The position numbers and the translations under genes are program-made. A stretch of 32,000 nucleotides of DNA from Candidatus Methylomirabilis limnetica. GTDB taxonomy: Bacteria; Methylomirabilota; Methylomirabilia; Methylomirabilales; Methylomirabilaceae. How positions within the stretch are numbered: position 1 is the stretch's first letter; each line of letters opens with the position of its first letter. Of this stretch, positions 4,766 to 31,903 are shown piece by piece. The notes beneath the pieces were generated by a model. It was given only the letters and a program-made list of their open reading frames with translations, was not told the DNA's origin and did not search any database. The stretch lies in the NCBI RefSeq assembly GCF_003044035.1, contig NZ_NVQC01000013.1, positions 121,078-153,077 of the forward strand, written 5' to 3'.

Positions 4766-5560
4766 ATGCCTACCTTCAAATTGACGATCGAATACGATGG
4801 GACAGACTATCATGGCTGGCAAGTTCAGCCTGGAATGACCACCATTCAAGGAACGCTACAGAAAGCGGTCAAGCGGATTGTCGGGAAGGGCGTCCACGTC
4901 ATGGGTGCAGGCAGAACCGATTCCGGCGTCCACGCCCTCGGTCAGGTCGCCAGTCTTCGAGCTGAATTCAGCCATCCACCAGACATTCTCCGGCGAGCCC
5001 TGACCAGTGTTCTGCCGCCCGATATCGTCGTGACGGCGGTGGAGGAGATGGACAACGACTTTCACGCTCAGCTCTGGGCGAAGTGGAAGCGGTACCGGTA
5101 TACCATCCTTACGCGCCCATACCCATCCGCCCTCGAGCGTCGATACACCTTATTTGTCCCTTACCCACTCAAGATAGATGCCATGGCTGATGCCGCGAAG
5201 ACCCTGATCGGTACCCACGATTTCAGCGCCTTTCAAGCGGCTGGTAGTTCCGTAAAATCTTCGATCCGAACGGTATTGGTAGCTGAGTTACGGCAGGAGG
5301 GGGATCACCTGTTGCTTGAGATCGTGGCGAGCGGGTTTCTCCGCCACATGATTCGGATCATCATGGGGACTCTGCTGGACGTTGGGAGGGGAAGATTACG
5401 GCCTGAAGATCTTAAAGCGATACTTGAAGGAAAAGATCGCAACAATGCATCTAAGACTATTTCTCCACATGCACTATGTTTGCTCGAAGTGGGCTACCAG
5501 CCGTTCACGCCTCACGCCTCACGCCCTCACGTCCTTTCGCAGGAGGTTTGCTTCCCATGA
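4766..5560 (+). CDS. truA: tRNA pseudouridine(38-40) synthase
   Basis: MPTFKLTIEYDGTDYHGWQVQPG...GAGRTDSGVHA catalytic Asp motif. The upstream ATG at 4742 lies inside the hairpin repeat, so 4766 is preferred. Confidence 0.85.
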   Translation: MPTFKLTIEYDGTDYHGWQVQPGMTTIQGTLQKAVKRIVGKGVHVMGAGRTDSGVHALGQVASLRAEFSHPPDILRRALTSVLPPDIVVTAVEEMDNDFHAQLWAKWKRYRYTILTRPYPSALERRYTLFVPYPLKIDAMADAAKTLIGTHDFSAFQAAGSSVKSSIRTVLVAELRQEGDHLLLEIVASGFLRHMIRIIMGTLLDVGRGRLRPEDLKAILEGKDRNNASKTISPHALCLLEVGYQPFTPHASRPHVLSQEVCFP

Positions 5561-10283: not shown

Positions 10284-10350
10284 TGTGATTGCTCCGCGTC
10301 AGCGAGGGTTGTCGTTACATTGGTCTGCGCCAGGGGCCGCCTGGGCAGGG

Positions 10351-10419
10351 TCATGTAGTGCCCCCCTGAAAGTCATTGGGGACGACGCGCTGCATGAGCG
10401 ACACGCACTCGCGCCGAAG
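10351..10419 (-). pseudogene. 3'-terminal remnant of a second hepT (DUF86) gene
   Basis: The minus strand reads ...RECVSLMQRVVPNDFQGGTT*. This aligns with the last codons of the intact hepT (...RECMSLMPCVAPND...) at 14547-14606. Confidence 0.55.
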
Positions 10420-10816
10420 TCACTTCCGCATACGGCGTTGTCTCTACCATCTGGTTCTCCCCATGAGGCTAACAGATATTAGCCGACAGTTCTTAGGCGG
10501 ACTCTACGATATTGGTGTGTGCAATGCAACACGATACTCGTGACACACTCCTTGGAACACTCTTGAACAAAACGCTTGCACGGGAACCCACTGTTGGATA
10601 GCCTGTTCGTCAGCTAGGGATGATACCCAATGCCTCAGGTGTGGACCCGTCGCCCCCTTGCCCCAGATTCCCGGTGGCCAGCAGGGTACTTGCAGGTGGC
10701 CATAGACTCTTTTCTCCAGGCGCTGACAAACGATTCGGTGGTTGCTGTGGTAGAGGCCGACCGGTTGCTCGGTGGGGCCGTCAGGTGTTGGCCATAGCAA
10801 CGGAGGTGAGAGACTG
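10410..10816 (-). repeat. conserved non-coding element, copy A (core 10469-10658, plus flanks shared with copy C)
   Basis: Aligns by eye with 14345-14533 and 15331-15520. The flanks 10410-10468 and 10659-10816 align only with copy C. Strand assignment is tentative. Confidence 0.8.
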
Positions 10817-11299
10817 ATGCGGCGAGCGTTGACCATCGCGGGCTCCGATTCCGGCGGTGGAGCGGGGATCCATGCCGATCTGAAAACGTTCACAGCCCTT
10901 GGTGTGTTCGGGACATCGGCGATTACGTCGGTTACGGCCCAGAACACGATCGGCGTCCATGGGGTGCACGATCTGCCGCCGGAGTTCGTAGGGGGCGCCA
11001 GATCGACTCGGTCCTTGACGATATCGCCATCGACGTGGCCAAGACCGGGATGCTTTCGAGCGCAGCGATCATCGAGGTGGTCACGGCGAAGGTGAAGGCG
11101 CATGCGATCCAGCGGTTGGTAGTCGATCCGGTGATGGTGGCCAAGAATGGGGCGCCGTTACTTCGGTCTGATGCCGTGAACGCGCTCATTGAGCGTCTGC
11201 TGCCCCTTGCCCTTGTTCTCACGCCGAATGTGCCGGAGGCTGAGGCGCTCACAGGGCTGACGATCACTGAGCTCAATGGGATGCGTCAGGCGGCGCGGC
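10817..11299 (+). pseudogene. thiD: 5' fragment of a thiD paralogue, frameshifted and truncated
   Basis: Colinear with thiD 15904-16384. Two extra G in the G-run 10991-10995 shift the frame, so the ORF track splits into 10772..11095 and 11035..11316. Homology ends at 11299. Confidence 0.85.
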
Positions 11300-11329
11300 C
11301 TACAACAGGCGGATAGAAAGGTGGAAGAC

Positions 11330-12760
11330 ATGAATGTGCGTTCAATCCTGACAATTGTAGCCACGCTCGCGCTGGCGTTACCGGCACAGGCGGACGATGA
11401 AGGCGTCGCGCTGACGATCTACAATCAGAGCTTCGGGGTCGTGCGCGAGAAACGAGGCGTCGAGATCAAGGACAAGCTTGGCGTGGTCCGGTTCACGAAC
11501 GTGGCGGCGCAGATTGACGGCACGAGCGTGCAATTCAAATCGCTCACCGATCCCGCCGCGCGTGTGCTGGAGCAGAACTACGAGTATGACCTCGTCTCCG
11601 CGGACAAGCTCCTGCACAAATACATCGACAAACAGATCGCGGTGCTCACCAAGGACGGCTCGCGCTATTCCGGCAACCTGATGAGCTTCGACGCGAACCA
11701 ACTCGTCATCCGGCAGTACGGGGAGAAGGGCGAGATCGTGATGGTGCAGCGCGGCGACAACGTCAAAGACATCCAGTTTGGCGCGTTACCGGAAGGATTG
11801 ATTGCGAAGCCGACGCTGGTGTGGAAGCTCGCGACAGAGAAACCAGGCACGCATCTCGTCGAGGTCGCCTATCAGACCGGCGGCTTGAACTGGCAGGCCT
11901 CTTACAACGCCGTGCTCAACGCCAAGGATACCGGGCTGGACCTCGGCGGCTGGGTGACAATCAACAACACGTCCGGCGCGACCTATAAGGACGCGAGGCT
12001 CAAACTTATTGCCGGAGACGTGCGCCGGGTCCAGCCGCCGTCTCGCGCATACGCCATAAAAGGCGCGATGGCGATGGAAGCGGCCGCAGCGCCACAATTC
12101 GAGGAAAAAGCGTTCTTCGAGTATCACCTGTACACGCTGCAACGGCCCAGCACGGTCGCCGACAACCAAACGAAGCAGATCGAATTGCTTAAGGCGGCGG
12201 ACGTACCGGTCAAGAAGGTGTTGCTCTACGAGGGCGCGCCGCAATTCCGGTTCTACGGTGGACTGCACACGTCGGCGGAGTATGGCAGCCAGGAGTTCAA
12301 CAAGAAGGTCAACATCATCATCGAGGTCAAGAACTCGAAGGACAATCACATGGGCATGGCACTGCCGAAGGGCAAGGTGCGACTCTACAAACGCGACGAG
12401 GCCGATGCGGCGCTGGAATTCATCGGCGAAGACGAGATTGATCACACGCCGAAGGACGAGACGATCAAGCTGCACATCGGCGACGCGTTCGACGTCGTCG
12501 GCGAACGCAAGCGCACCGATTTCCGCGTGGACAGCGGCCGGCACGTCATGACCGAGAGCTTCGAGATTCGCATTCGCAACCACAAAGACGAACCCGTGGA
12601 CGTGCTCGTCAAAGAGACGCTCTATCGCGGGAACAACTGGGAGATCACCGCGTCGAGCCACAAGTGGACCAAATTCGACTCCGGCACCATCCACTTCCCG
12701 ATCACCGTAGCCAAAGACGGCGAGCGGGTCGTGACGTACACGGTGAGATATACGTGGTGA
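11330..12760 (+). CDS. secreted DUF4140/DUF4139-type (MuiA-like) protein
   Basis: Signal peptide MNVRSILTIVATLALALPAQA, then ALTIYNQSFGVVREKR...FTNVAAQIDGTSVQ and a beta-rich C-terminal region. GGTGGAAG lies before the ATG at 11330. Confidence 0.6.
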   Translation: MNVRSILTIVATLALALPAQADDEGVALTIYNQSFGVVREKRGVEIKDKLGVVRFTNVAAQIDGTSVQFKSLTDPAARVLEQNYEYDLVSADKLLHKYIDKQIAVLTKDGSRYSGNLMSFDANQLVIRQYGEKGEIVMVQRGDNVKDIQFGALPEGLIAKPTLVWKLATEKPGTHLVEVAYQTGGLNWQASYNAVLNAKDTGLDLGGWVTINNTSGATYKDARLKLIAGDVRRVQPPSRAYAIKGAMAMEAAAAPQFEEKAFFEYHLYTLQRPSTVADNQTKQIELLKAADVPVKKVLLYEGAPQFRFYGGLHTSAEYGSQEFNKKVNIIIEVKNSKDNHMGMALPKGKVRLYKRDEADAALEFIGEDEIDHTPKDETIKLHIGDAFDVVGERKRTDFRVDSGRHVMTESFEIRIRNHKDEPVDVLVKETLYRGNNWEITASSHKWTKFDSGTIHFPITVAKDGERVVTYTVRYTW

Positions 12761-12983
12761 TGTCTGAGGCGTTGAAGCTTTTAGCCGAGTGAAGCGAGTC
12801 GCCGCTCACCCAAGGCGGTCTGGCAAGACTGGTGAAGTCCAGCCAGTCCAGGGTCGCCAAGATGGAAGCCGACGATCCCTCGGTGTCTTGGACCTGCTCA
12901 TTAGAACCCTTCTGGCGCTGGGAGCCTCGAGTCGCGAGATAGCGAGAACCTTCGCGCCCTCTCGTCGCGCCACGGCGGCCTAA
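12760..12983 (+). pseudogene. decayed XRE-family HTH (antitoxin-like) gene
   Basis: MSEALKLLAE-TGA-SESPLTQGGLARLVKSSQSRVAKMEADDPSVS, then a -1 shift into LDLLIRTLLALGASSREIA...*. It carries one in-frame stop and one frameshift. Confidence 0.55.
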
Positions 12984-13053
12984 CGCTCCGCTTCATCTGC
13001 GGGCGCTCACGCCTCATCAATGGCGAGCCGTCAACTGCAAGCGGTAGTTAGGT
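12978..13053. mobile_element. attC-like hairpin site R (76 bp)
   Basis: The plus strand reads GCCTAAC ... GTTAGGT and the minus strand ACCTAAC ... GTTAGGC, so RYYYAAC / GTTRRRY appear on both strands. The interior is an imperfect palindrome (CCGCTT/AAGCGG, CGCC/GGCG, GCT/AGC with bulges). Confidence 0.5.
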
Positions 13054-13057
13054 CTTT

Positions 13058-13384
13058 TCACGAAAACAGTTCCGCCAAAGTCGAGAAAACCGCCGACTGT
13101 GTTTGCGGCCCAACTTTCCCCAATCTTTTCACCAATCTTGATTTGTCGACAGTTCGAATCTGGTCGAGAACAATCTGGGCTTGCTTGCCTTGGGAAACAC
13201 AAGAAACCCGAGAGGGATAATCTCGCCCCTTCGTGGTCATTGGGGCAACTATGACTGTGGCAATGAAACGGTTTAATTCGTCCGGCGAGATGATCAGACA
13301 GGGGCGACTCTTCTTGATCTCGCTTCCAACAGTAGGGTCCAGGTTTACCAGATAGACTTCAAACCGTTTCACTTCCATTCCCAT
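13058..13384 (-). CDS. mazF: type II toxin, MazF/PemK-family endoribonuclease
   Basis: 108 aa with VYLVNLDPTVGSEIKKSRPCLIISPD...VIVAPMTT...VLDQIRTVDKSRL. Confidence 0.85.
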   Translation of the reverse strand: MGMEVKRFEVYLVNLDPTVGSEIKKSRPCLIISPDELNRFIATVIVAPMTTKGRDYPSRVSCVSQGKQAQIVLDQIRTVDKSRLVKRLGKVGPQTQSAVFSTLAELFS

Positions 13385-13626
13385 TCTTCCTTATCCCAGG
13401 AAGTCTGGCTAGCCGCATCCGCATCCAACAACTTGTCATCGCCCCTTGCCGCCATGGCCCGGAACTTTTCCGCCCAGCCTTCGCGCGGCTTTTTCACTGA
13501 GCGAATGATAATCTGGCGGTCCCCAACCTGAAGCTCAACCTCGCCACTCAGATGGGTCTGCTCCAACACCACTTTGGGGATTCTAATGCCTTGGGAATTA
13601 CCGATGCGAACGATGCTTGCCTTCAT
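13369..13626 (-). CDS. mazE: type II antitoxin, AbrB/MazE/SpoVT-family
   Basis: 85 aa with IVRIGNSQGIRIPK swapped-hairpin motif. Overlaps mazF by 16 nt. GGAGGTGG RBS. Confidence 0.8.
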   Translation of the reverse strand: MKASIVRIGNSQGIRIPKVVLEQTHLSGEVELQVGDRQIIIRSVKKPREGWAEKFRAMAARGDDKLLDADAASQTSWDKEEWEWK

Positions 13627-13656
13627 CGAATACCACCTCCAACCAACCTTGATATA

Positions 13657-13690
13657 ATTACAATGTAATCACATCGTACTCTTTCGTCAA
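13657..13690 (-). promoter_or_regulatory. putative mazEF promoter with palindromic operator
   Basis: Minus strand: TTGACG (13690-13685), 17 nt, then TACATT. A perfect palindrome ATTACAtTGTAAT (13657-13669) overlaps the -10 region. Confidence 0.4.
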
Positions 13691-13701
13691 TAGTGAAATA
13701 G

Positions 13702-13768
13702 GCCCAACGTTCACGTCAACCGGCGCGCGCCGCTCTTGCGCGCGTCCGTGTTGGGCGTGCTGTTAGGG
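13702..13768 (-). mobile_element. attC-like hairpin site Q (67 bp)
   Basis: Minus strand: CCCTAAC-ag-CACGCCCAACA-CGGaCGCGCGC-aagagcg-GCGCGCGCCG-GTTGACGTG-aac-GTTGGGC. Homologous in architecture to the site at 31522-31587. Confidence 0.6.
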
Positions 13769-14334
13769 TGCCCTCGCTGCTCAGTGGGCTTGCCGACAAT
13801 TGAAGGCGTCGACGCAAAGTCCCAGTTGTCTTCATACACCGAAGCCAGCGGTGCAGGGACGGCGATCGGGCGATCATTGGGAAGACCGATGCGAAATAGA
13901 CGCCGGTCGCTGGTGCGGTGCGCCGGGTTGTCTTTGAGCCATAGTTGATGCTCGTCTCGCACGTATTTGGCAACGACGACACTCGGGACGATAAAAAATC
14001 GCAACGCGTACTTCGACAACTCAGTCCGGCTCGAATTGATGTGCACGAAGCAGTAGAACAGGTTCGGGTCAATGACGCCTTCGTGCTTGGCGCTCATCTG
14101 CCAATCGGTAACGAATGTTTCAAAGAGCCTTGAATCACTGTCGCGGGTGCGAGTCTCGAGGTTTGTCTTAACCTCGACTTCGTAACGTGCGCCCCTGCGG
14201 GGGTCGAGCACCAGGATGTCGATGTTCTTCGTATGACCCAGAGTCATGCCTGCGTCGTAGCCCCGCAGTGTCAATTGCGATAGGACGGCAAATTCTCCCG
14301 CGAGCCCTACTGAATTGGGTGGAATTCGCGCCAT
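13711..14334 (-). CDS. PD-(D/E)xK nuclease-like hypothetical protein
   Basis: The N-terminus GLAGEFAVLSQLTLRGYDA...NIDILVLD...YEVEVKT matches the G..GE / D / E-x-K layout of Hjc/YraN-type nucleases. No family was recognised for the C-terminal half. Confidence 0.55.
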   Translation of the reverse strand: MARIPPNSVGLAGEFAVLSQLTLRGYDAGMTLGHTKNIDILVLDPRRGARYEVEVKTNLETRTRDSDSRLFETFVTDWQMSAKHEGVIDPNLFYCFVHINSSRTELSKYALRFFIVPSVVVAKYVRDEHQLWLKDNPAHRTSDRRLFRIGLPNDRPIAVPAPLASVYEDNWDFASTPSIVGKPTEQRGHPNSTPNTDARKSGARRLT

Positions 14335-14344
14335 ATTGAGTGCC

Positions 14345-14540
14345 CTAACAGATATTAGCCGACACTTCTTGGACGGGCTTTACGATATTGGTGCGTGCTA
14401 TACCAACACGATACTCGTGACACACCCCTTGGAACATCCTTGAACAAAACGCTTGCACAGGAACCCCCTGTTGGATAGCCTGGTCGTCAGATATGGATGA
14501 TACCCAACACCTCAGGCGTGGACCTGTTGCCCCCTCCAAC
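14345..14540 (-). repeat. conserved non-coding element, copy B (core only)
   Basis: 14345-14533 aligns with 10469-10658 and 15331-15520. On the minus strand it is bounded by GTTGGAG (14540-14534) and GTTAGGG (14349-14343). Confidence 0.8.
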
Positions 14541-14546
14541 GCGGTG

Positions 14547-14909
14547 TTAGCCCACCTCGTCATTGGGGGCGACGCAAGGCATGAGCGACATGCACTCGCG
14601 CTGAAGCACCGATACATCGTGTTCGACGATCGCCCACACGACAGCGTCATCCACGGTCGGGTACTCGTGGGTAAGCTGGTTGCGGAAGTCCACGATCCTC
14701 CGTGCCCGCGTGATTGCATCGAAGGCATCCGGTGCGACTCGGCCGAGTGCCGCGGCCGCCTCTCCGATGATGATGAACTCGCGCTCGACCGAAGAGCGGA
14801 CGAGGCGATTGCTTTCATACCCGGCGAGATTAAGGTCTCGAACCGCGACGGTGATCGCGTCGCACGACTCGATGATGTCGGCCAAGTAGGCACGCGCATC
14901 ACGCGGCAT
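14547..14909 (-). CDS. hepT: HepT (DUF86) toxin of a HepT/MNT module
   Basis: 120 aa with the Rx4HxY motif RNQLTHEY. Overlaps the upstream MNT gene by 11 nt. Confidence 0.85.
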   Translation of the reverse strand: MPRDARAYLADIIESCDAITVAVRDLNLAGYESNRLVRSSVEREFIIIGEAAAALGRVAPDAFDAITRARRIVDFRNQLTHEYPTVDDAVVWAIVEHDVSVLQRECMSLMPCVAPNDEVG

Positions 14910-15207
14910 AAAGCATCTGCCTCGTACGCTCGATGTCGCGGGCGATGTACGGGTTTTTGATGGCCCCCACCATGACCAAGTCGATCTTCAGGCCTAATAC
15001 GGTCCGGAGTTCTTCCAGCATGCCGAAGTAGGCCTCGACTCGAGCGTACGGCTCCATCGGCCCGAACTCGACCAACAGGTCCAGGTCGCTCTCATCCGGT
15101 TTGAAGTCATCATGCAAAGCCGAACCGAACGCGTACAGCCGTACCACACCATGGCGCACGCAGGCCGCAGCTATCGCTTGGCGATTGTTCTCGAGAACAC
15201 CGATCAT
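14899..15207 (-). CDS. mntA: MNT-family nucleotidyltransferase antitoxin
   Basis: 102 aa with LYAFGSALHDDFKPDESDLDLLVEF (the GS...D.D nucleotidyltransferase motif). Confidence 0.85.
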   Translation of the reverse strand: MIGVLENNRQAIAAACVRHGVVRLYAFGSALHDDFKPDESDLDLLVEFGPMEPYARVEAYFGMLEELRTVLGLKIDLVMVGAIKNPYIARDIERTRQMLYAA

Positions 15208-15268: not shown

Positions 15269-15660
15269 CCGCGCCGAAGTCACTTCAGTGTGCGGCGTTG
15301 TCTCTACCCTCTGGTTCCCCCCCGATGGGGCTAACAGATATTAGCCGACACTCCTTGAATGGACTCTACGATATTGATGCATGTAAGGCAACACGATACT
15401 CATGACGCGCCAATTGGACAACTTTTGAACAAAACGCTTGCACAGGAAGCGACCGTTGGATAGCCTGTTCGTCAGATATTGATGATACCCAACAACTTAA
15501 GCGTGGACCAATCGCCCCCTTTAACCGAGATCCCCGGTGGCCAGCATGGTACTTGTAATTGGCCATGGGGTCTTTTCTTCAGGCGGAGACCAACGATCCG
15601 GCGGTTGCTGTGGCAGAGGTCGACCGGATGCTGGATGGGGCGGGCAGTCTCCGGTGGAGT
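15269..15660 (-). repeat. conserved non-coding element, copy C (core 15331-15520, plus flanks shared with copy A)
   Basis: Aligns with copy A across both flanks and the core. It lies between the mntA start and thiD. Confidence 0.8.
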
Positions 15661-15759
15661 ACGTGGACGATATCCAGAGGACGTCGGCCGGGCAAGCACC
15701 CGTGCGTGGTTTGCTATGTCCCGCCAGTATAGTGTCCCATAAGTCCCTTTACAGTGATT

Positions 15760-15874
15760 GTCATTCTGGGCTTGACAAGCCTGCCCCGTACTTGATACGG
15801 GGGAATCCAGTCTTTCTGTGCTGGATTCCCGCTCCCCGCTTAAGGCATGCGGGGACAAGCTTCGCGGGAATGAC
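15760..15874. repeat. multi-hairpin REP-like element (family 2)
   Basis: Outer arms GTCATTC (15760-15766) and GAATGAC (15868-15874) enclose three hairpins: CCCCGTA/TACGGGG, GGAATCCAG/CTGGATTCC, CCCCGC/GCGGGG. It is absent from the otherwise homologous copy A. Confidence 0.7.
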
Positions 15875-15903
15875 GGCTTCGGTACAACGGAGGTGATAAA
15901 CCG

Positions 15904-16698
15904 ATGCGGACGGCGCTCACGATAGCAGGCTCCGATTCCGGGGGTGGAGCGGGGATCCAGGCTGATCTGAAGACCTTTGCCGCCTTGGGTATCTTCGGGA
16001 CATCGGCGATTACGTCGGTCACTGCCCAGAACACGGTCGGTGTCCAGGGGGTGTACGATCTGCCGCCGGAGTTCGTCGGGCGCCAGATCGACTCGGTCCT
16101 GGAAGATATCCACATCGACGCGGCCAAGACCGGGATGCTTTCGAGCGCAGCGATCATAGAGGTGGTCGCGGAGAAGGTGAAGGCGTATGCGACCATGCGG
16201 CTGGTGGTCGATCCGGTGATGGTGGCCAAGGGTGGGGCGTCGTTACTTCGGCCTGATGCCGTGAAGGCGCTCGTCGAGCGTCTGCTGCCCCTTGCCCTTG
16301 TTCTCACGCCGAATGTGCCGGAGGCTGAGGCGCTCACAGGGCTGACGATCACCGAGCTCAATGGGATGCGTCAGGCGGCGCGGCAGATCCACGGCCTCGG
16401 CCCGAGGTACGTTGTCCTCAAGGGGGGCCACCTTGGCGGTCGCGCGATCGATCTCCTGTTCGACGGAAGTCACTTCACGGAGTTGGATGCCGAGCGGATC
16501 GATACGCCGCACACCCACGGGACCGGATGCGTCTTCTCTGCGGCCATCACCGCGGAGCTGGCCAAGGGCAGTCCGGTTCCAGAGGCAGTTGCCATCGCCA
16601 AGCGCTTCATCACGGCTGCAATCCACTATGGGTTTCGGCTTGGCAAGGGATTCGGTCCGACCGATCCGATGGCGGCCGCAAGGAGCCTCACGCCATAA
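15904..16698 (+). CDS. thiD: hydroxymethylpyrimidine/phosphomethylpyrimidine kinase
   Basis: 264 aa with [21 protein letters not shown]...[11 protein letters not shown]...HTHGTGC. GGAGGTG RBS. Confidence 0.9.
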
Positions 16699-30367: not shown

Positions 30368-30467
30368 TCACCGCGAGGGAGCGGAGCGACCGAAGCAATC
30401 CCATCGTTCTTCACACCCTCAAGGACATTCAGATTGCCACGCTCCCTTCGGTCGCTCGCAATGACGA
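30368..30467. repeat. REP-like long imperfect hairpin (family 4)
   Basis: GAGCGACCGAAG (30384-30395) pairs with CTTCGGTCGCTC (30446-30457), and CAATC pairs with GATTG. Confidence 0.6.
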
Positions 30468-30839
30468 GCCAGTGAGTGGCATAGTCTGGCTTTAAACTTT
30501 CATACCCAAGAGCGCCCTATATCCACATGGCTGCCAACACACTACGACGATCTATACCCATGTAATGAACCGAAGGGACAAGGGAATCCACAGCCCAGTC
30601 GATAGGCTCGAATTTAGCTAGGGCAGTTCGCTGTGGGAAGGTTGAATAGGCTGACCTGGGTGCAGCGTTTGCCGTCATCAGGATTTATAAGAATGTATTG
30701 CTAACTACGCGATAAGGCTGTACTATTTGCTCTGACCTAAAAACGGTTGGTCTGGATATACTGGTCAGCATACATAATAGTTGGGCAACATGTACCCCAG
30801 TGTTGTCTGACTCTTTAATCAAGGGGAAGGGAGAGCAAT

Positions 30840-30905
30840 ATGTTTTGTCTAAAGTGCGGCAAGGAAAACTCTAACGACGTAAAGTTTTTCGTCTTGACCG
30901 TGTAG
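30840..30905 (+). pseudogene. possible frameshifted zinc-ribbon mini-gene
   Basis: MFCLKCGKENSNDVKFF... (CxxCG knuckle) stops after 21 codons. A second knuckle, CRKICG, is readable in another frame just downstream. GGGAAGGGAG lies upstream. Confidence 0.25.
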
Positions 30906-31002
30906 AAAGATCTGTGGTGTACTTAGCCGTACATCTAATGATTGGTCAGCCGTGGTCCGGCGCTTGGAGTAAAATTTACCCGACATTTCGAGAGGTAGGG
31001 GC

Positions 31003-31224
31003 ATGAAGCAATCGTCGGTTGTGCACTGCGATCCTGATATCCTGGGGGGCACCCCGGTGTTCGTTGGAACGCGCGTTCCTGTTCAGGCGCTGATTGACTA
31101 TATCGAGGGCGGCCACTCCCTTGAAACGTTCCTTGATGACTTCCCAACCGTGAGCCGGGACATCGCGGTGGCTGCTCTCGAGCAGGCGAAAGTGCATTTA
31201 CTCGCCGATGCGCGTGCTGCTTGA
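31003..31224 (+). CDS. DUF433-family protein (putative antitoxin)
   Basis: 73 aa with ...DPDILGGTPVFVGTRVPVQALIDYIEGGHSLETFLDDFP..., the typical DUF433 core. Confidence 0.8.
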   Translation: MKQSSVVHCDPDILGGTPVFVGTRVPVQALIDYIEGGHSLETFLDDFPTVSRDIAVAALEQAKVHLLADARAA

Positions 31225-31510
31225 CGAATGTTTCCCCCGAGCCTTACGCGTGGAGCTTCCTGGCCACGAAATCGCGACGGTCGCTGAAGCCGGGTGGGCT
31301 GGCGTTAAAAATGGCGCGCTCTTGCAACTTGCGGCAGCGCGGTTTGAAGTTCTCTTGACCGTTGATCGCAATCTAGAGTATCAGCAGAACTTTTCCAGTC
31401 TTACGATCGCCGTCATCGTAGTTGACTCCCCAAGCAACGATGTTGAGGTGCTTCTGCCATTGTGCCCAAGGTCCTCGAAGCCTTACCCAAGGCCAAGCCT
31501 GGAGTCGTGA
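31208..31510 (+). CDS. DUF5615-family PIN-like protein (putative toxin), with a likely 3' frameshift
   Basis: MRVLLDECFPRAL...LLTVDRNLEYQQN. Overlaps the DUF433 gene by 17 nt. After about 31455 a different frame gives the family-like tail IVPKVLEALPKAKPGVVTHVHG*, ending at 31527. Confidence 0.7.
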   Translation: MRVLLDECFPRALRVELPGHEIATVAEAGWAGVKNGALLQLAAARFEVLLTVDRNLEYQQNFSSLTIAVIVVDSPSNDVEVLLPLCPRSSKPYPRPSLES

Positions 31511-31521
31511 CGCATGTCCAC

Positions 31522-31587
31522 GGCTAACAGCGCAATCACACCGACGCGCGCAAAAGCGGTGCGCGCGGGTGATTGCGAACGTTGGAC
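31522..31587 (+). mobile_element. attC-like hairpin site P (66 bp)
   Basis: GGCTAAC-ag-CGCAATCACa-CCGaCGCGCGC-aaaagcg-GTGCGCGCGG-GTGATTGCG-aac-GTTGGAC. Same architecture as site Q at 13702-13768. Confidence 0.6.
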
Positions 31588-31903
31588 GACATAACAATGG
31601 ACAAACGTATCTTGTGGGCAGTGTTCTCGGATTACTCGCTTTAATATTTGCGTATTCCTATCAAAGCCGCTACCCATTCTGATCGCAAAGTAGACATCTC
31701 TTCCGATTGAACTCGGCCAGACGTTCCGATGTTGGTGCAGATTTGTGGTTGAAATCTACACCGCGATGCCGAGGGTGACATCCCCGCTTGGAGGTGGAGA
31801 GTCCTTCTGATCAGCGGGAATAGGCTGACCGTTCCTGCAGTGTTTGCCATGTTCCGGATCGTTGGAAATTCCTTGCGGGTGTAAGACAAATTTATGGGTA
31901 ATA

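Follow-up and report, generated by a model that had tools for sequence, protein, structure and literature searches.

A conserved element upstream of thiD in Candidatus Methylomirabilis: a probable docking site with a candidate outward promoter at the border of an integrase-less cassette array

In class 1 integrons, the paradigm for such systems, the recombination site attI1 and the promoter Pc lie at the promoter-proximal end of a cassette array, and the first cassette starts at G|TT of the GTTRRRY R box, with an inverted L box a few bases away (CCCTAAA in attI1, the minimal delta-attI1 being AAACAAAGTTRRRY; PMC12901181). A simple site of this kind is common to the attI sites of other classes (PMC3146285), and the attC sites of cassettes follow the consensus R'' RYYYAAC and R' GTTRRRY (PMC12901181). 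Some open reading frames (ORFs) are followed not by attC but by a copy of attI, which may amount to 14-18 nt, 244 nt or a complete 65-bp attI1 on both sides (PMC12901181), and IntI1 both excises and inserts cassettes of this delta-attI or attI-ORF-attI type (Gonzales Machuca et al., Sci Rep 2026, PMC12901181). Two further variations have been described: clusters of attC sites lacking an integron-integrase (CALIN; Cury et al. 2016, PMC4889954), and attG sites, genomic positions at which cassettes insert outside the canonical integron at G(W)T (Loot et al., bioRxiv 10.1101/2022.09.11.507474). Here we compare with these systems a repeated, non-coding element of about 200 bp found in a 32,000-nt stretch of DNA from the NC10 bacterium Candidatus Methylomirabilis limnetica (assembly GCF_003044035.1, contig NZ_NVQC01000013.1, positions 121,078 to 153,077; hereafter the window). 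Searches of the literature and its supplements turned up nothing specific on integrons in Methylomirabilis. We consider it reasonably probable that the element is a conserved thiD-proximal DNA docking site with a candidate outward promoter, which shares its region with a candidate thiD promoter and borders an integrase-less cassette array.

The element is present three times in the window, as copy A (10469..10665), copy B (14345..14541) and copy C (15331..15527), none of them assigned to a strand. The copies are direct repeats with pairwise identities of 80-84%; they align end to end, as an original prediction made from the letters of the window had it, and the invariant blocks listed there occur exactly three times each in the window, against approximately none expected by chance. 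It is also correct that each copy closely precedes, on the minus strand, a gene or what is left of one: mntA is 123 nt from C, a 207-aa ORF is 10 nt from B, and a 48-nt remnant of the hepT 3' end adjoins A. Two motifs said to occur in each copy are found in A and C but not in B: the hairpin GGCTAA-tatctg-TTAGCC, which in B reads GGCTAA...TTAGGG with 4 bp of pairing and which is missing from most homologues, and the promoter-like TTGCAT/TTGCCT-17-TAGAGT, for which B has TTGGTA-18-TAAAGC. The earlier observation is therefore partly confirmed. Copy C stands beside the intact thiD gene (hydroxymethylpyrimidine/phosphomethylpyrimidine kinase; 15904..16698, plus strand), the conserved anchor gene of the locus, and with 10 private substitutions has more of them than either other copy. 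Note that A and C are both embedded in a diverged duplication of about 0.9-1.1 kb (10372-11292 and 15270-16377) that reaches into the 5' part of thiD, A having a truncated thiD pseudogene on its plus-strand side, so that the limits of the element proper can be read only from B, the sole free-standing copy, which sits between the stop codon of hepT and the beginning of the 207-aa ORF. In minus-strand reading, the two edges of B each fall at G|TT (CACCGCG|TTGGAG and ATATCTG|TTAGGG).

Exact 19-mer scans of 185,579 species genomes and a metagenome collection returned three real homologues (L003, L008 and L010), the remaining matches being chance-like and devoid of a second conserved block. When contigs encoding ThiD homologues were searched with an nhmmer profile of the element, eight related lineages proved to carry a copy just upstream of thiD (L003, L008, L010, L016-19, L020, L021, L022-25, which is M. 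lanthanidiphila, and L031-34). Six of the eight have a single copy, L010 has two, and L021 has one full copy plus a 22-nt partial one. No element was found on the more distant thiD contigs L026-L030, L046 and L047, and scans of viral contigs with 16- and 17-mers gave chance matches only, none of which could be extended. Because homologues are confined to the position upstream of thiD, the element is locus-specific and not a dispersed repeat. The end of a miniature inverted-repeat transposable element (MITE) or insertion sequence was considered and rejected, as the ends of the element are not inverted repeats and the 19-mer scans gave only thiD-linked copies besides the chance-like matches. In alignment, a core of about 135 nt, from CTAACAGATATTAGCCGACAG to GTTGGATAGCCTG, is followed by one of two leader types up to the thiD start; the longer, type 2, form is that of the window copies, L008 and L022. 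Where the other genomes have invariant columns, A, B and C are depleted of substitutions (Fisher p 4e-5 to 0.01), and L008, which comes from another metagenome, is 88% identical to A and to B, compared with 80-84% among the three window copies. With the copies as distant from each other as from L008, and substitutions steering clear of invariant columns, the pattern speaks for import from other strains over recent local duplication.

What singles out the side of the element that faces away from thiD is its end point. Read on the minus strand, the conserved sequence stops at one and the same base in 11 junctions (...GTCGGCTAATATCTG|TT(A/G)G), each of which continues into a different downstream sequence. 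After the G, the junctions read TTAGCC in A and C, TTAGGG in B, TTAGGC in L008, TTAGAC in L022, TTGGGC in L020 and (twice) in L021, TTGGGT in L003 and in the first copy of L010 (L010a), and TTATCC in L016; the full GTTRRRY is present in seven of the 11. An inverted GGCTAA precedes the GTT by 5-6 nt and the site reads CGGCTAA-TATCT-GTTRRRY, a geometry that, judged by its sequence, resembles the attI simple site with its two inverted boxes of about 7 bp and the R box at the crossover. In the window, these putative sites lie on the minus strand at 10467..10484 for A (GGCTAATATCTG|TTAGCC, inferred crossover between plus-strand positions 10472/10473), at 14343..14360 for B (GGCTAATATCTG|TTAGGG, 14348/14349, with the start of the 207-aa ORF 10 nt beyond) and at 15329..15346 for C (GGCTAATATCTG|TTAGCC, 15334/15335). 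In all 11 junctions the first cassette begins at G|TT, and in five cases it ends in an attC-like site; in L003, L016 and L021, homology to the DUF523 leader resumes at |TTAG(G/C) beyond the inserted cassettes. L021 also has a second, exact 22-nt copy of the element end (CCCAACAGATATTAGCCGACAG), located 3.5 kb from the full copy so that the two bracket a cassette block. These patterns suggest that the last 20 nt or so of the element behave as a cassette insertion site. As the adjacency to intI that defines attI is missing, we call the element an attI-like docking site and do not file it as attI.

The genes beyond the junction form a hypervariable minus-strand run of toxin-antitoxin or defence type that differs by lineage: mntA-hepT, the 207-aa ORF and mazEF in the window; HNH, DUF433/DUF5615 and Phd in L021; BcGHD in L022; a 205-aa ORF in L003 and L010; GDT1 and Phd-ParE in L016; and DUF523 in L020. 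Directly after ORFs stand imperfect palindromes of 55-80 nt whose ends read RYYYAAC (R'') and GTTRRRY (R'). Two of these belong to the array in the window, both on the minus strand. Site 1 (13702..13756; R'' GCCCAAC, R' GTTGGGC) forms a 55-nt hairpin with a minimum free energy (MFE), computed as DNA, of -20.4 kcal/mol, and the surrounding 88 nt fold with a z of -2.8; site 2 (12978..13053) has R'' ACCTAAC, L stems CGCTT/AAGCG and R' GTTAGGC. Others were found in L021 (6893->6835 and 5686->5620), L022 (6396->6337), L008 (324->260 and 1256->1185) and L010 (7473->7401, the same site as L003 1464-1536). Nine attC-like sites can be aligned; the R stem is conserved among them, the inner stem carries compensatory changes, and from these nine we built a covariance model, R1, to which sites 1 and 2 belong as seed members (43 and 59.9 bits). 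A tenth site, not part of the seed, was recovered at 31519..31590 on the plus strand (36.4 bits, E 1e-5), after a DUF433/DUF5615 pair at 31003-31510. The ORF-flanking hairpins thus combine the R''/R' core, a hairpin length within the 55-140 nt of attC sites, a position 3' of an ORF and a structure that is kept while the sequence varies, all of which characterize attC, and the neighbouring genes are integron-type cassettes. With two attC-like sites 650 nt apart (12978-13756) and no integrase within 10 kb, the array corresponds to a CALIN.

Conservation within the element is divided between two halves. The block on the thiD side (AAAACGCTTGCAC-N17-TAG(C/T)CT) is kept in every copy, including those of L031 and L010b, which no minus-strand cassettes abut. 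The block on the cassette side (CAGATATTAGCCGACA) is invariant wherever cassettes abut, decayed in L031 and absent from L010b. In L020, the two halves are separated by an insertion of about 100 nt. The loss of the cassette-side block where cassettes are absent, along with this insertion between the halves, indicates that the element is modular. The L020 insertion (1955-2045) is itself GC-rich, with internal hairpins GGATTCCGTG...CACGGAAT and CCCCGCAGC...GCTGCGGGG.

Each half contains a promoter-like motif. The thiD-directed candidate of A (10576..10604, plus strand; TTGCAC-17-TAGCCT) lies in the most conserved block (AAAACGCTTGCAC...GTTGGATAGCCTG), with counterparts in B (14453-14481) and C (15438-15466) on the same strand, and by its sequence and position the thiD-side block is probably the thiD promoter. 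On the minus strand, TTGCAT-17-TA(G/A)(A/G)GT, kept in most homologues, is probably an outward promoter into the array, again as read from sequence: the candidate of A is at 10501..10529 (TTGCAT-17-TAGAGT), that of C at 15363..15391 (TTGCCT-17-TAGAGT) and that of B, a poorer match than the other two, at 14377..14406 (TTGGTA-18-TAAAGC). Transcripts from these candidates would be predicted to begin near 10494, 14370 and 15356 on the minus strand and near 10611, 14488 and 15473 on the plus strand. A sigma-54 promoter in TTGGAAC...TTGAAC was rejected on inspection, since it lacks the GC dinucleotide and its spacing is wrong by 1-2 nt. Of the two interpretations offered originally, possibly a structured RNA or a portable promoter, the latter comes closer to the evidence: the element is always immediately upstream of a differing minus-strand gene, the motif is mostly kept, and B moved with its cassette. 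A portable promoter is therefore compatible with what we find, promoter activity being predicted, and what the earlier reader had not seen is the context of a cassette array.

How does the locus compare with the systems described at the outset? Like attI1 and Pc, the element is situated at the promoter-proximal end of a cassette array, and it has a predicted promoter that faces the cassettes, first cassettes that start at G|TT and an inverted L-box-like heptamer close by. It is unlike attI1 in that thiD takes the place of an adjacent intI, that there is no sequence similarity to attI1, and that the conserved unit spans 135-195 bp rather than 65 bp. Provided that the element end is an attI-like site, delta-attI and attI-ORF-attI architectures are both present here, in the form of the 22-nt copy in L021 and of the copy B of about 197 nt (C - mntA/hepT - B), respectively; the published cases, however, concern mobile resistance integrons of classes 1 and 2 whose integrase is known, whereas here the array is chromosomal and integrase-less, in an uncultured NC10 bacterium, mobility is inferred, and the repeated unit also carries promoter-like motifs. 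CALIN share with our locus the presence of at least two attC-like sites without intI within 10 kb, a cargo of toxin-antitoxin systems and small ORFs of no known function, and intI remnants elsewhere, but the term covers the array and not its border, and the attC sites here were called with a home-made model. As at attG, cassettes are found outside a canonical integron at a G(W)T site; yet attG sites are numerous and weakly defined, whereas this is a single, strongly conserved site with L/R-box geometry that is reused across lineages, and where a CRGM motif has been reported on the right of attG, that side here is cassette sequence.

Before turning to how such a platform might operate, we need to consider alternative explanations for the conservation of the element. 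Its long invariant blocks, its position upstream of a thiamine-pathway gene and a genuine inverted repeat (GGTGTGT...ACACACC around CACGA-TAC-TCGTG) are what one might expect of a structured non-coding RNA or riboswitch, for example a thiamine-related thiD leader or a small RNA from the minus strand, and a minus-strand frame that is open through A, B and C as well as L003 might point to a small protein-coding gene. The data support neither. The original statement that no Rfam family is recognizable is upheld by an Rfam search of the whole window, in which nothing reached the gathering score, and inside the element no family, the thiamine pyrophosphate (TPP) riboswitch included, matched even at E<=10. 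Copy B folds no better than shuffled sequence (MFE z -0.03 on the minus and +1.19 on the plus strand). Covariation was assessed in a homologue alignment of 12 distinct copies, where the RNAalifold consensus amounts to -1.6 kcal/mol on the plus and -5.6 kcal/mol on the minus strand with a covariation term of about 0. A 7-bp helix proposed to show a compensatory change fares no better than column shuffles: 80.6% of cells are paired compared with 81.2%, with a covariation score of 0.198 versus 0.197. Together with its inner hairpin, this helix is nonetheless a real DNA inverted repeat, as pairing falls from 80.6% to 13-52% when partners are slid. Wobble substitutions do not agree on a strand either: those of copy C favour the minus strand, those of L010a and L020 the plus strand. 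The 100-nt insertion in the middle of the L020 copy speaks against an RNA and a protein alike, and the conserved part is situated largely upstream of either candidate start site. As for coding, variable columns lack a 3-nt periodicity (31, 26 and 32 over the three phases, p 0.67), stop codons interrupt all six frames in most homologues, B has a 1-nt indel, and neither a start codon nor a Shine-Dalgarno sequence is conserved. In the absence of an Rfam match, a folding excess and covariation, the structured-RNA half of the earlier interpretation thus falls, leaving that interpretation partly supported. We would grant an RNA very little probability and a protein-coding gene less still; we regard both readings as excluded and take the element to work as DNA, not as RNA or protein. 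Three more specific candidates were discarded along the way: a resemblance by eye to a TPP riboswitch on the minus strand (CUGAGG...GUAUCAUCC...AUCUGACGA), which has no Rfam backing and is on the wrong strand for thiD; a group IIC-attC intron end (an idea taken from PMC3001079), for which there is neither a GUGYG 5' end nor an Rfam intron match; and an intrinsic terminator at 15435-15451, the stem of which is found in copy C only.

A more serious alternative, improbable in our view but deserving of attention, holds that the element is an ordinary divergent promoter or leader of thiD and its neighbour with no role in recombination, that cassettes are kept there because they are expressed, and that the copies arose by Campbell-type integration from related strains or by segmental duplication. 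The most conserved block does occupy the position of a thiD promoter and persists in copies that no cassettes abut, A and C belong to a duplication of about 1 kb that includes thiD 5' sequence, no locus has an adjacent integrase, and L010 (8244-8400 / 9687-) and L016 (~1620- / 8001-) share with the window the arrangement of an element and truncated thiD followed at a distance by intact thiD. A truncated next to an intact target gene is the classical footprint of single-crossover homologous integration, and this, in what may have been repeated events at the 5' end of thiD, is most simply how the thiD-5' duplications in the window, L010 and L016 arose, so that homologous recombination also shapes the locus and constitutes the main rival explanation for its duplications. 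But if expression and homology were all there is to it, we would not expect 11 junctions with different cargo to fall at the same phosphodiester and to continue with TTRRRY, nor cassettes with attC-like sites, nor a left-end block that decays where cassettes are absent. Moreover, the exact 22-nt partial copy flanking the L021 cassette block is too short for efficient homologous recombination, and B and C, at only 80% identity, would make a poor substrate for it. Another option, which we regard as unlikely, is that the element, instead of being a fixed platform, is an integron cassette without an ORF, a mobile "promoter cassette" with G|TT at both of its ends. This would suit the edges of B, the GTTAAAG found at the matching right-hand position of C, the GTTGGGT of the long form, which is preceded by CCTGAGG like the attC 3' end of the L016 Phd-ParE cassette, and a weak match to the attC model at 14499-14555 (9.2 bits, E 0.47). 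Against it, A, L008 and L022 have no GTT at the right-hand position, and outside the window the element is fixed beside thiD in every lineage, as a single copy in most. Nor does it have an attC-type hairpin of its own: a 236-nt fold of B with its flanks gives a z of -0.84 with the ends unpaired, which also disposes of the idea that the whole element is one long attC site.

Several observations weigh against the docking-site reading itself. No integrase gene stands beside the element in the window or in any of the eight related lineages, none in the window is intact, and the nearest integrase remnant is 15 kb away in the window (2.6 kb in L022). At four of the 11 junctions, the sequence departs from GTTRRRY. 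For calling attC sites we relied on a home-made model and on pattern scans rather than on IntegronFinder, and because the simple RYYYAAC/GTTRRRY pattern is unspecific, with about 14 matches per 177 kb of shuffled DNA, the argument for attC depends on the model, on folding and on positions relative to ORFs. Against that model, with filters off, element ends score 7-9 bits (E 0.5-1.5) on 24-nt stretches, for example 8.0 bits (E 0.86) at 10464-10487 in A and 9.1 bits (E 0.5) at 15326-15349 in C; such weak end-to-end matches are consistent with a site consisting of R boxes only and are not significant alone. By hand count, the promoter hexamers match the sigma-70 consensus at about 7/12 and 6/12 positions, NC10 promoters being uncharacterised, and both the outward and the thiD-directed motif fall below the threshold of a promoter scan, the version in B being weaker still. 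Finally, the reading does not account for the strong conservation of the roughly 100 nt between the site and the thiD promoter.

Keeping these points in mind, the docking-site reading suggests the following scenario. The element would be an intergenic platform in a subclade of Candidatus Methylomirabilis, with thiD on its plus-strand side and the hypervariable array on its minus-strand side. Its cassette-side end (GTCGGCTAATATCTG|TTRRRY, minus strand) would be the docking point, functionally attI-like; a sigma-70-like motif some 30-60 nt inside the element would transcribe whichever cassette has docked, analogous to Pc; and the other half, AAAACGCTTGCAC-N17-TAGCCT, would be the thiD promoter. 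Recombination would be carried out by an integron integrase acting in trans. Imagine that copies of the platform travelled with cassettes, which could be how this genome came to have three: a circle comprising element, 23 nt, hepT, mntA and linker would recombine through its own site with the resident site, yielding C - mntA/hepT - B - next cassette, and the excision circle expected from this scheme would have the junction CACCGCG|TTAGCCCC. In the order of events we infer, A would derive from a second, older and partly deleted copy of the whole unit of thiD 5' end, element and toxin-antitoxin pair. More tentatively, one may picture the unit of about 200 bp as a self-contained docking site and promoter module that is mobilised with a cassette by an integrase encoded elsewhere, via attI x attI; we find this possible but not probable.

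The kind of system considered here is already known. What is new is the NC10 lineage, the fixed thiD-linked locus, the lack of an integrase beside the array and the repetition of the module of about 200 bp within it; compared with CALIN, it is also new that a border sequence is conserved across species at a fixed housekeeping locus while the arrays differ between species. If the docking-site reading is true, integron-type cassette capture takes place in NC10/Methylomirabilis at a fixed chromosomal locus without a resident integrase, cassettes of the attI-ORF-attI/delta-attI type also occur in environmental chromosomal arrays, and there is a short candidate attI sequence for an uncharacterised clade of integrases. 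Should the region adjacent to an NC10 intI share GGCTAATATCTGTT or the whole block, the element would be a true attI/Pc platform. If the module reading were true as well, a thiD-anchored array would keep capturing, expressing and exporting cassettes without an integrase of its own, and the platform would spread as a mobile promoter. The finding mainly concerns specialists in integrons and mobile elements, but it also carries a warning for annotation: a strongly conserved, repeated non-coding block beside toxin-antitoxin genes need not be RNA.

The genes and remnants of the window array are as follows. The mntA/hepT toxin-antitoxin pair (14547..15207, minus strand; mntA 14899-15207, hepT 14547-14909) matches Pfam NTP_transf_2 and HepT-like, with PADLOC PDC-S09 for MntA, and is flanked by C and B with no canonical attC after it. 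The 207-aa ORF (13711..14334, minus strand), the first cassette after B, had been described as nuclease-like and has no Pfam or PADLOC match; the last 20 or so of its predicted codons overlap attC-like site 1, and the real product may be shorter. Next comes the mazE (13369-13626) / mazF (13058-13384) cassette (13058..13626, minus strand; Pfam MazE_antitoxin and PemK_toxin). Convergent with mazF, at 12760-12984 on the plus strand, is an XRE-type helix-turn-helix (HTH) gene that is interrupted in the window and intact (74 aa) in L013; on that strand, the stop codon of the HTH pseudogene falls within the GCCTAAC of attC-like site 2. On the far side of A, the hepT 3' remnant (10372..10419, minus strand; 48 nt, 88% identical to 14559-14606) meets the A-side linker at a repeat of 10 nt (CTTCGGCGCG/CTTCAGCGCG), and from its sequence A looks like what remains of a C-like unit (element-linker-mntA-hepT) after a deletion between the 10-nt repeats removed mntA and most of hepT. 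A suspected fourth, truncated copy of the element to the left of this remnant (10284-10371) was dismissed, with a local alignment score of 14 compared with 14.8 +/- 2.1 in shuffles. In the L021 array, an unannotated part (4783-5513) contains five tandem coding repeats of about 130 nt.

On the thiD side, the truncated and frameshifted thiD 5' fragment (10818..11292, plus strand) duplicates 15904-16377 at 84-93% identity; two Phos_pyr_kin fragments are called in L012. The breakpoint that ends the fragment (11252-11294, GGCGCGG|CCTACAACAGG) has a CAACAG/CTGTTG motif and scores 9.6 bits (E 0.37) with the attC model, and may be a secondary recombination site. The leader of intact thiD contains a MITE-like insert (15730-15880) with terminal repeats GTCATTC.../...GGGAATGAC, which is also present in L003 and overlaps a sub-threshold match to the Rfam "Transposase-2 RNA" family (15782-15835, 22.6 bits, E 0.27); a similar MITE-like end (GTCGCTCGCAATGACGAGCC) is found at about 30440-30475, just before an integrase remnant. 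On the plus strand, 15600-15710 and 10700-10790 each hold a 3'-end remnant of a CapK-like (AMP-binding) gene (VDRMLDGAGSLRW...PGKHPCVVCYVPPV), with a counterpart in L003 (...VDQMLEGAVKLRS...SGKFPYVVCKVPLEL), and in L016 and L047 an intact glycosyltransferase/Mur-ligase/CapK operon lies between thiD and the element or contig start. Among the thiD contigs, L003 (DATMXF010000064.1) is labelled as a Patescibacteria-group metagenome-assembled genome, yet has a Methylomirabilis-like thiD, DUF523 and CapK in addition to the element, and is probably mis-binned. L028/L029 (ERZ25039602 contig_102707) carries two inverted copies of the gcvP-ATPase-thiD region, which may be an assembly palindrome.

Integrase remnants are present at some distance from the element. 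The one in the window (30535..30609, plus strand; ...TTTIYTHVMNRRDKGIHSPVDRLEFS*) is a C-terminal fragment of an integron integrase, detected by tblastn with an IntI1 query that was verified to be 100% identical to IntI1, and it matches TIGR02249 "integron integrase" over profile positions 288-315 of 315 (E 3.9e-6). A second, in L022 (10525-10662), matches the same family at E 1.6e-8; for both, TIGR02249 is the best NCBIfam match, XerD reaching 0.005. Searches for an intact Methylomirabilis integrase gave nothing with the 59-aa remnant as query and only proteobacterial-type integrases with IntI1. In the window, the last 25 or so integrase codons are followed in order (30535-31590, plus strand) by an AT-rich stretch, the DUF433/DUF5615 pair and the tenth attC-like site (GGCTAAC...GTTGGAC). 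The roughly 45 nt that follow the integrase stop (GAATAGGCTGACC...GTTTGCC) are repeated at 31818-31865, preceded by ..SPLGGGESF*, which may be another tiny remnant of an integrase end. By their sequence, 30535-30609, 31003-31590 and 31770-31865 (plus strand) appear to make up another integron-like patch, now decayed. In L022, too, this post-stop sequence comes after an integrase-like fragment, near 13330-13450. The L022 stretch 10384-13500, downstream of an SDR gene, is a second insertion hotspot, again with the footprint of a duplicated target-gene end: it comprises the remnant of the integron integrase, a 120-aa ORF, a transposase of the Y1 (IS200/IS605) type and an MNT gene, followed by a duplicated SDR fragment. 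Other lineages have toxin-antitoxin pairs or a reverse transcriptase (L021 12245-13144) at that position.

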